DNA from: a virus | Taxonomy: Duplodnaviria; Heunggongvirae; Uroviricota; Caudoviricetes | DNA: 10,381 nucleotides | IMG/VR virus record: IMGVR_UViG_2531839265_000011 | Location: 1 to 10,381 of that record | Reading direction: 5' to 3' (one strand) | Part shown: one piece after another, positions 3,875 through 9,069 of the stretch | Layout of the letters: each line of letters opens with the position of its first letter | Position numbering within the stretch: position 1 is the first letter of the stretch | Translations under genes and position numbers: made by a program | The notes under the pieces: model-generated | What the model was told of the DNA's origin: nothing | What the model saw: only the letters and a program-made list of their open reading frames with translations | The model's database searches: none

Positions 3875-4343
3875 AGTATTTCAGCTCCAGTGTGAACGTT
3901 TTGTTCTTCGGCGCACCGCCGGGAAGAAAGGACGTGGTGTTATCTGAATAGGCGGTTGCCACGAAATACCCCATCACATCACCTGTGCTCGAGACCAGAA
4001 GATGCGGGGCCGGATTGTCATCCACCATCTGAACCAGTGTATCAAGGGCATCCATTCCCACACCGTCACGAAATCCCGCGTGCGCCATACCTTCAAGGGT
4101 TATTGTTCTGGCCCCCTTGCCGGTATACTGCAGCAGATCGTTTTTTCCGATAAGCTGTTGTTCATCCCATCGCCATTCCATCGTGCGCTTCATGGCGTTA
4201 TAAGCAGCAGTATCAATACTGAATTCAAACTCACCAAACGACAGCATGACGCGGGAGGCGACATCCGTTAATGATCCCACCGCGTCCCATGCTTCACGCT
4301 CAAGCCGGTTTACGCCCCAGCCCAGCAAATCCACCATATTCAC
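3849..4343 (-). CDS. gpU-like tail protein (tail terminator/tube-cap family)
   Basis: ORF-track frame 3849..4343, start as listed is GTG overlapping the tape-measure stop; a more plausible start is ATG 4337-4335 (GGGGGTG 3 nt upstream) or the internal ATG 4247-4245. Size and position immediately after the tape measure gene fit gpU. N-terminus uncertain. Confidence 0.6.
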   Translation of the reverse strand: MNMVDLLGWGVNRLEREAWDAVGSLTDVASRVMLSFGEFEFSIDTAAYNAMKRTMEWRWDEQQLIGKNDLLQYTGKGARTITLEGMAHAGFRDGVGMDALDTLVQMVDDNPAPHLLVSSTGDVMGYFVATAYSDNTTSFLPGGAPKNKTFTLELKYYGEKLADY

Positions 4344-5994
4344 CCCCAGAATGCATCGCCATCGGTCATGCGGGAACGCTGACCAAAATGAATATCTCCC
4401 AGATTTTTCGTTACCCTGTCAGCCAGTTGTCCGGCATCCTCGCCAGGCTTCTGAGTGATGTTAAATTCCGCCCGTATCTGATATGTGGGTTTTACTTCCA
4501 CCTGGCTGACACTGCCGGGGGTATACTGAAGAGCCGAGAGAGGATCCGAATTACCCTGCCCCTGAACTGCTGCAGGAAGTCCGTCAATATAGGTGCGGGA
4601 TTTCTCTTTTATCGCCTTAAAATCAGGTTCTTCTTTCGGCCCCAGCAGAGGGTCGAGAAATGCATCAAACTTTTTATCGTCATGATTCCAGGGGAGATAA
4701 CCGCGGGTGTCTTTATAGGCCTGTACAACCTGTTTTGTCAGGTCAGGATTTTGCCTGAGCAGTTCATCAAACCATTCACCCTGACCGTTTTTCTGCGCCA
4801 CTGCTCTCGCCAGCTCCGGCGACCCCATTTTTGCCAGATACTCCAGCACTTCCCGTCGGTCCTCTCGCGGATCATCCGCCAGCCCCCACTCAATGGCTTT
4901 TTGTGTAATTCCGGCAAGAACTTTTCCAAATTTCCACATCCAGGCAGCCATGTCGATCAGCGCCGGCAGGGCATCATCACGAATAAATGCCCGGATTTTT
5001 TTCCAGCCCACCATTCTTAAACCAGGCCGCAAGGTCATCCGTCACCTGTTGAATATGTGGGGCAAGTTCATTACCCAGCTGTCCGCTGATTTCATCAATG
5101 GAAGAACTCAGAACATTACGGAGATTTGACAGTGCCACATGTCCCTGAACTGCGCCATCAGCCCCTGCCTTTGTCACCAGGTTATAGCGTTTCTGCTCAC
5201 TGATAAGCTCCCGGTAAGTTTTCCCTGACAGACGCATCCAGGTCAGAATTTTATTGGCCTCACCACCGAACAACGCATCTGCCATTCCGGCAGCCACCTG
5301 TTCATTCTCCACCTGCAGTAAGCGATCAAATAAAAATTCGACCTGCTCCTGGTTGCTTTTCCCTGTCATCACCCCGGCTTTCAGTCCCAGTTTGCCAAAG
5401 ACCTCCTGAATGGCCCCTTTATCCGTGGCACCATTATCATCGTCAAAAACCTTGTTCCGGTACTCCTCAAACAGATCACCGATGTTTTCACCGTTCAGCC
5501 CCATCAGTCGGGCCAGAGAATCCCATGACGCATAGGTTTCATAATCCACCCCATAACTGCGGGCTATCCCTGCCCGCTCTGCCGTCTCCGTATTCCGGTT
5601 AAGCACAGCGGCAGTGCCCGCTGCCAGCGTCAACCCGGAACCAACCGAAAGCCCAAAACCGGTTTTAAGGACCGTCCCCGCCCGCCCTTTCCAGCGTTCC
5701 AGGCGTTCCGCGCGCGCCAGTTTACGGTTAAATTTGTCCTGCTCTCCGGTGGCATCATGAATTTTTTTACCCAGCTTTTCATACTGCTTTCGCAGATCAG
5801 TAATATCCTGTCCAGCCAGTACGCCAGCCTGAATTTTTCGTTTCAGTACGTCCTGCTGGCGTGTCAGGCGAGCCACTTCCTGTGTTGCCCCTGATAATCC
5901 GTGCTTCAGTCCATCAACCGATTTTTTTCCACGACGGATCTATCGTGCCTCCGATCCGGATATTCGCTTTAAGGTTATCGCCCACCGTTGCCAT
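4340..5994 (-). CDS. tail tape measure protein, reading frame interrupted twice at A7 runs (frameshifted gene or homopolymer sequencing error)
   Basis: Position directly after the E/E' chaperone; strong RBS (AGAGGAAG, 9-nt spacer) before ATG 5994-5992; three consecutive open segments (5994-5917, 5939-4980, 5041-4343) in different frames joined by single-nt shifts at A7 runs 5922-5928 and 4996-5002; Gly/Ala-rich hydrophobic stretch GFGLSVGSGLTLAAGTAAV typical of tape measure proteins; conceptual product about 548 aa. Confidence 0.6.
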
Positions 5995-6420
5995 AACGTT
6001 GCTTCCTCTCTTCCGACTCCGCCAGCATCATTGCCACAAAATCCGTATACGGCAGCGCCATCACATCTCCGGGAGACCACCCGAACCAGGCACCGGCACG
6101 CCGTATCGCTGTCAGGATGCTTTCTTCTTCCGCCGGACCGGCGGCAGCAAAAAAACATTAAACTGACGCTCCAGGGCCAGGTAATCACACGCTTCCATGT
6201 TCATCATGTCTGCCGCGTCCATCCCACACAGACCGGCAATCATATCCAGATCAGCCTCTGCTTCCGGTTTGTTACTCCGGCGATGCAACAGACGATCGCG
6301 GACAGTGGGCGCACGCATAGTGACGTGCGTGATCGTCTGTCCTGATGCGGTGACATACGGCACGGATAACACAATTTCCACGCTGCTGGCAGGAACGCTG
6401 TTTTTTTCCGACATAAGCAT
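5975..6420 (-). CDS. tail assembly chaperone E+E' fusion produced by programmed -1 ribosomal frameshift
   Basis: After a -1 slip at T_TTT_TTG (6154-6148) the -1 frame stays open for 57 codons (FFAAAGPAEEESILTAIRRAGAWFGWSPGDVMALPYTDFVAMMLAESEERKQRYGNGGR) to TAA 5977-5975, ending just inside the start of the tape measure gene; this is the standard E/E' (G/GT-type) arrangement. Confidence 0.6.
6112..6420 (-). CDS. tail assembly chaperone, gpE-like
   Basis: 102-aa ORF between tube and tape measure; AAGGAG at 6426-6421; first ATG at 6420-6418 is too close to the SD, so ATG 6414-6412 (6-nt spacer) is the likelier start; contains the T_TTT_TTG slippery heptamer 12 codons before its stop, as in P2 E. 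Confidence 0.75.
   Translation of the reverse strand: MLMSEKNSVPASSVEIVLSVPYVTASGQTITHVTMRAPTVRDRLLHRRSNKPEAEADLDMIAGLCGMDAADMMNMEACDYLALERQFNVFLLPPVRRKKKAS
6148..6154 (-). other. -1 programmed ribosomal frameshift slippery heptamer T_TTT_TTG
   Basis: Minus-strand sequence GTT TTT TTG in the E frame; heptamer X_XXY_YYZ with X=T, Y=T, Z=G, identical in form to the P2 E/E' site. Confidence 0.6.
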
Positions 6421-6968: not shown

Positions 6969-6987
6969 CAGTTTTTTTCACCCGTCA

Positions 6988-8517: not shown

Positions 8518-9069
8518 TCAGGTATTTTGTGGCTGCTCAGGCCAGCTAATATTGTTGTATGTGGTCTTATCCGTAATAGCGCTGAAATCCATCGCCTGCA
8601 GCGATTTCGCGTAAATGCGGTACGCTTTCAGCTTCTCCCTGTCTTCGTCACTGATTAATCCCGGCAGCAGGTCTTTTTCCCATTCGCTGGTCATGATGCT
8701 GACCTGTTTTAACAGAGCATCGCGCTCATCTTCCGCTTTAAGTTTGTAGTCGAAGACAAATTTATCGTCGCGGTAAAACCAGTAACCAGGCACGGTTATA
8801 CGGCGATTAGCGGTAATATCAGGAACTTCAATAACACTGGCGTTACGGGGTTCAATGCCTGTCACATCCTTACCGACCCACACCACGCGCCCGTCTCCGG
8901 TGTAAACCATTTTTATGGTGTCACTGGCAAAATTCTTCTGTTCTTCATACCAGTTTTTGTCATCTTCCGAAAAAAGCCAGGTGATACCATGTTGTTTTGT
9001 CATCTGATATTGTTCTGCGGTTTTCGGATTGCCCGCAGTAATATTTTTAAATGCAACATTGTTAAACAC
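8518..9069 (-). CDS. tail fibre assembly protein (Tfa, gpG-like)
   Basis: 183-aa ORF starting (GTG 9069-9067) 8 nt inside the end of the upstream fibre gene; C-terminus ...TTYNNISWPEQPQNT carries the W-P-x-x-P ending characteristic of Tfa chaperones; position immediately downstream of a fibre gene. Confidence 0.8.
   Translation of the reverse strand: MFNNVAFKNITAGNPKTAEQYQMTKQHGITWLFSEDDKNWYEEQKNFASDTIKMVYTGDGRVVWVGKDVTGIEPRNASVIEVPDITANRRITVPGYWFYRDDKFVFDYKLKAEDERDALLKQVSIMTSEWEKDLLPGLISDEDREKLKAYRIYAKSLQAMDFSAITDKTTYNNISWPEQPQNT

Follow-up and report, generated by a model that had tools for sequence, protein, structure and literature searches.

Where does the tape measure gene of this prophage start, and is the break in its reading frame a property of the phage or of the sequence in which it was read? 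The window, i.e. the whole stretch of 10,381 nucleotides that was analyzed, carries a P2-type contractile tail module whose genes of interest all lie on the minus strand. The tape measure gene of this P2-like prophage tail module occupies positions 4340..5994 of that strand, where relatives have one ORF of 550 aa. In the window, the same DNA is divided between several frames. The initial annotation had proposed that the true start is an ATG preceded by a ribosome binding site, in a different frame from the main ORF, and that the two frames are separated by one surplus base in a homopolymer. The coordinates on which this proposal relied were all confirmed on the minus strand. The ATG lies at 5992..5994, and a Shine-Dalgarno-like sequence, AGAGGAAG, can be read directly upstream of it at 6002..6009, its AGGA core being separated from the ATG by 9 nt. 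The frame opened by this ATG contains 26 codons, reads MATVGDNLKANIRIGGTIDPSWKKIG and is closed by a TGA (5914..5916, minus strand). The long middle ORF, which the ORF list starts at GTG 5876 and which ends at 4977 (299 aa), is in a different frame, open upstream as far as a TAG at 5940..5942 on the minus strand. A run of seven A at 5922..5928 (minus strand), hereafter site 1, shifts the frame after codon 24. Removing one A from this run joins the two frames and gives MATVGDNLKANIRIGGTIDPSWKKSVDGLKHGLSGATQEVARLTRQQ..., as had been predicted.

The start codon was then considered in the light of related loci. When the region was compared by megablast with complete E. coli genomes, 75 records were returned, the best of them about 98% identical. 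Two relatives (L001 and L002) each contain one ORF of 1653 nt (550 aa) starting exactly at the equivalent of ATG 5994, at locus position 4457. Three closer relatives (L011-L013) were found through the DUF4376 protein encoded in the window; their prophage sits at the same site beside potB, and their annotated start, at position 4582, is the same ATG. All relatives have six A at site 1. The N-terminus obtained after removal of one A is identical to that of the intact homologs, indicating that the arrangement of the start is not due to chance: the first 24 residues are the same as in the L001 protein, and the PHROG profile that recognizes the protein aligns from residue 3. No homolog was found that starts at the equivalent of the GTG without the upstream 24 residues, all full-length relatives carrying MATVGDN...SWKKSVDGL. 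Judged from the sequence, the correct annotation is thus one tape measure gene that encodes 550 aa from ATG 5994 and is 1655 nt long as written and 1653 nt long once one A is taken out of each of two A7 runs.

The gene also stands where a P2 tape measure gene is expected. On the minus strand, the module begins with genes for the tail fibre (10375-9062) and tail fibre assembly (about 9059-8518), followed by those for the sheath (8463-6988, Pfam Phage_sheath_1), the tube (6991-6474, Pfam Phage_tube) and the chaperone E (6112..6420, Pfam Phage_TAC_7), whose listed ORF has 102 aa and is annotated with 100 aa in relatives. A T_TTT_TTG slippery heptamer within E (6149..6155, minus strand) predicts a -1 frameshift leading to an E+E' product, and the T7 run of this site has the same length as in relatives. 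In the -1 frame, E' ends with a TAA at 5977-5975, 20 nt into the tape measure gene, and so covers its first six codons; the overlap between the end of E' and the ATG, reported by the initial annotation, is therefore real. Downstream of the tape measure gene come gpU (4343-3849, Pfam Phage_P2_GpU, PF06995), gpX (3874-3656, Pfam Phage_tail_X) and gpD (3665-2577, Pfam Phage_GPD), then a 654-aa fibre-like protein resembling lambda Stf (2552-588, phage_tail_N and Phage_fiber_2 domains) and a DUF4376 protein (573-1), all on the minus strand. The whole can be regarded as an ordinary P2-like tail cluster, including the -1 frameshift signal expected in E/E'. The genes for the 654-aa fibre-like protein and the DUF4376 protein, located after gene D, lie at the prophage edge, immediately next to potB on the chromosome, and in L002 this fibre-like/DUF4376 region is interrupted by an IS66 element.

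The tape measure gene thus occupies the place of P2 gpT, immediately following the tail assembly chaperone pair with its putative -1 frameshift and preceding gpU and gpD. The repaired protein matches phrog_3654 over residues 3-550 (E 9e-215), a family that bears no functional label, and is weakly matched by six PHROGs labelled tape measure (E 1e-9 to 1e-4); no Pfam family matched it. PGAP calls some of the orthologs 'phage tail tape measure protein' and others 'hypothetical protein', and even L001 and L002 differ in this respect, one bearing the first name and the other the second. Both the position and the weak matches to PHROGs labelled tape measure fit a tape measure identity for the encoded protein.

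The same gene is interrupted a second time, as the initial annotation had also noted. At site 2 (4996..5002, minus strand), the window has A7 where relatives have A6, and the additional base shifts the frame again, detaching a C-terminal ORF of 232 aa (5038-4340). Alignment of the gene to L001 and L002 showed only two indels, each corresponding to one extra A in the window, at 5922-5928 and 4996-5002. With one A removed from each run, the gene is identical to that of L011 over its entire length (1653/1653 nt), and the 550-aa protein shares 544 of its 550 residues with the L001 protein. Codon differences from the more distant L001 and L002 are mostly silent (31-33 synonymous, 7-8 not), and by these counts the gene bears no sign of decay. 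The site 2 run also varies elsewhere: in another E. coli assembly (P0029/P0007, FKF17_RS15075/FKF17_RS15080), the same tape measure gene is split into products of 344 aa and 203 aa, and the junction (…GGLEK then SGHLLVMMPCRR) fits A5 at this run, indicating that more than one public assembly carries a miscount or a mutation at this run.

The window belongs to the draft scaffold JH594577.1 of assembly GCA_000243195.1 (E. coli 4_1_47FAA, HMPREF0986 locus tags), and one of its ends abuts a scaffold gap of 69 N. The gene calls of this scaffold include several other split or shortened genes, each of which could be traced, by comparison with relatives, to a homopolymer difference of ±1. In the tail tube gene (ATG 6991-6989), a run spanning codons 4-6 (6972..6978, minus strand) has seven A instead of the eight found in relatives, which shifts the frame after codon 5, and gene callers propose a fragment of 128 aa or 164 aa in place of the intact 172 aa. 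In the tail fibre assembly gene, a run of five A, six in relatives, is located 9 nt after the ATG at 9059-9057 (9044..9048, minus strand); this puts the ATG out of frame, so that ORF callers take an upstream GTG (9069). Two further cases lie outside the window on the same scaffold (L003). There, the head-tail joining gene is cut to 76 aa, with A7 at L003 577-583 where L005 has A6, and its repair yields a 133-aa protein matching that of L005; the chromosomal gene pepT is split into products of 182 aa and 237 aa by a T5 at L003 18044-18048, T4 being expected. Once repaired, the tube and head-tail joining proteins are full length and match their relatives throughout. Over the six breaks, one base is gained four times and lost twice, in unrelated genes that include the core chromosomal pepT. 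The context TGG-A6-TC, which sites 1 and 2 share, was examined as a possible motif and rejected; the codon phases of the two sites differ (W-K-K-S vs L-E-K-I), and different contexts surround the tube, fibre assembly and pepT runs.

Comparison with the nearest relative, L011 (GCA_017773005.1), gave the same picture at the scale of the region. The two sequences are 99.48% identical over 14,076 bp, and their alignment contains exactly five gaps, all of them ±1 homopolymer differences and each breaking an ORF: A5 vs A6, A7 vs A8, A7 vs A6, A7 vs A6, and T5 vs T4 in pepT. These are the four homopolymer sites of the window and the pepT site, and no other indel was found. The sixth break, in the head-tail joining gene, was seen against L005 (A7 vs A6). 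Farther along, the intergenic region between pepT and roxA is about 100 nt shorter on the source scaffold (L003 18731-18759) than in L011-L013 (L011 14265-14393), and past this point the identity to L011 falls from 99.5% to 97.8%; the difference may be one of repeat elements or mark a recombination boundary.

Four of the broken alleles were searched for in complete E. coli genomes using one 101-nt probe per site. The window allele was present in none of the 28 matching genomes for tape measure site 1, none of 54 for site 2 and none of 56 for the tail tube, and the T5 allele of pepT in none of 5,425, all of which have T4. No match was identical to its probe: at the three +1 sites the matches lacked one base of the probe, and at the tube site they had one base more. 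The full-length matches to the site 1 probe in the 28 genomes all measure 100 nt, compared with 101 nt for the query, as a run of A6 would give. Six A were also read directly in three loci from complete genomes (L001, L002 and L005) and in five of five metagenome contigs, and the gap relative to L011-L013 likewise corresponds to A6. The surplus base that the initial annotation had suspected at 5922-5928 is therefore what breaks the gene. Run-length polymorphism, as in a phase-variable contingency locus, was not found at site 1: among all loci compared, only the source scaffold deviates, and it does so at every site. The two broken protein products occur in a single contig only within a collection of about 15 billion proteins. 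A megablast of the region against a phage collection returned no match. Among GTDB species representatives, an exact-pattern scan for the site gave no match, and a search for related loci with the repaired protein gave no confirmed relatives.

These comparisons bear directly on whether the A7 run could be real and functional. In such a case, a programmed +1 ribosomal frameshift on AAA_AAA_A, or slippage of RNA polymerase with deletion of one base, would restore the frame in a fraction of the products and thereby tune or switch tape measure synthesis. After a +1 shift, a tRNA-Lys paired with AAA can find AAA again, A runs do permit slippage, and the same gene module already appears to use a -1 frameshift in E/E'. 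However, conservation is the hallmark of programmed recoding and the shift is not conserved here, every relative examined being in frame with A6. Moreover, two independent events in the tape measure gene would be required for any full-length product, and the tube gene would call for the reverse shift. The site itself is equally poor in known stimulators. In the zero frame, the run is followed by the codon AUC, so that neither a stop nor a rare codon occupies the A site; the GGAGG at 5952-5948, about 20 nt upstream of the run, is too far away to act as a Shine-Dalgarno-like stimulator; the RNA flanking the run is no more stably folded than its shuffled versions (z = -0.74); and Rfam detected no RNA family anywhere in the window. 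Seven A's are also short for efficient transcriptional slippage. We thus regard recoding at site 1 as highly improbable. A slightly less credible version still is that the A7 runs genuinely exist in 4_1_47FAA, with the tape measure and tube proteins made only upon rare slippage of RNA polymerase or the ribosome; if it were true, tail production by this prophage would be a stochastic event of low frequency.

Another explanation could be that the A7 is real and results from a very recent +1 replication slippage which knocks out the tape measure gene jointly with the A7 of site 2, either in a prophage at the onset of decay or in a strain defective in mismatch repair. Homopolymer runs are natural hot spots for slippage and the usual sites of spontaneous ±1 indels, and five of the six breaks are found in dispensable prophage genes, the sixth lying in 5.6 kb of chromosome. 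The A5 that the other assembly appears to carry independently at the site 2 run, with its 344-aa and 203-aa products, likewise indicates that such runs vary between assemblies, by error or by mutation. Nevertheless, the repaired gene has accumulated no substitution in 1653 nt relative to L011, yet it would have acquired two frameshifts, with two more in neighboring tail genes. pepT is broken in the same way, although its probe matched 5,425 of 5,426 complete genomes and T5 was seen in none. Furthermore, if the density of six frameshifts in 20.7 kb held for the whole genome, about one quarter of all genes would be hit, which we consider implausible for a culturable isolate. Owing to the absence of substitutions relative to L011 and to the similar fate of pepT, prophage decay is ranked low, and a real recent mutation at site 1 seems unlikely.

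The remaining explanation, a homopolymer miscall, accounts for all six breaks at once. They consist of ±1 changes in mononucleotide runs only, they go in both directions, they affect unrelated genes including a conserved chromosomal one, and the alleles are unique to this assembly. Since ±1 miscounts of homopolymers appear in unrelated genes of the same scaffold, a sequencing or assembly error is the most likely origin of site 1 as well. We propose that the six A's at 5922-5928 were miscounted as seven and that the error was kept in the draft assembly; an error of the same kind would have occurred at site 2 (4996-5002), and likewise in the tail tube, tail fibre assembly and head-tail joining genes and in the chromosomal pepT. 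The A7 of site 1 is thus very probably a miscalled A6, with sequencing chemistry or assembly as the presumed cause. In the living strain, the tape measure gene would then most probably be intact and translated normally, without any recoding. Searches of the literature on the assembly accession and the strain name returned nothing on the sequencing platform; we presume that most Broad HMP reference genomes from those years were obtained by pyrosequencing, a chemistry that gives such errors.

The value of this result lies mainly in quality control. Within the window, four single-base miscounts of homopolymers would be enough to split or truncate three tail genes, and they would wrongly be taken for pseudogenes, recoding sites or signs of a defective prophage. 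Other apparent frameshifts at A or T runs in GCA_000243195.1 should be held suspect until they are compared with reads or close relatives.

Finally, the locus can be set against the systems that it resembles. It has the gene order of P2-type tail modules (sheath FI, tube FII, E and E+E', T, U, X, D), and it shares with them the T_TTT_TTG heptamer in E and the overlap of E' with the start of T. It departs from them by a tape measure protein of 550 aa that has no Pfam match and falls in the unlabelled phrog_3654, and by the presence, after gene D, of the lambda-Stf-like 654-aa fibre protein and the DUF4376 protein. With programmed +1 frameshifting of the prfB type and with transcriptional slippage on long A or T runs, site 1 shares only two frames overlapping at a slippery-looking run; unlike those sites, it lacks a conserved shift, a suitably spaced stimulatory Shine-Dalgarno sequence, a stop or slow codon in the A site and a structure downstream, and its run is only 7 nt long. 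In contrast, draft-assembly homopolymer errors, such as the over- and under-calls of the pyrosequencing type, show the same pattern of ±1 changes in mononucleotide runs, in both directions and in unrelated genes. Like the breaks described here, such errors are unique to one assembly and come without accompanying substitutions. We found no difference in pattern between the two and, although this attribution is inferred, the break at site 1 matches this well-known class of errors and is very unlikely to be a real biological feature.
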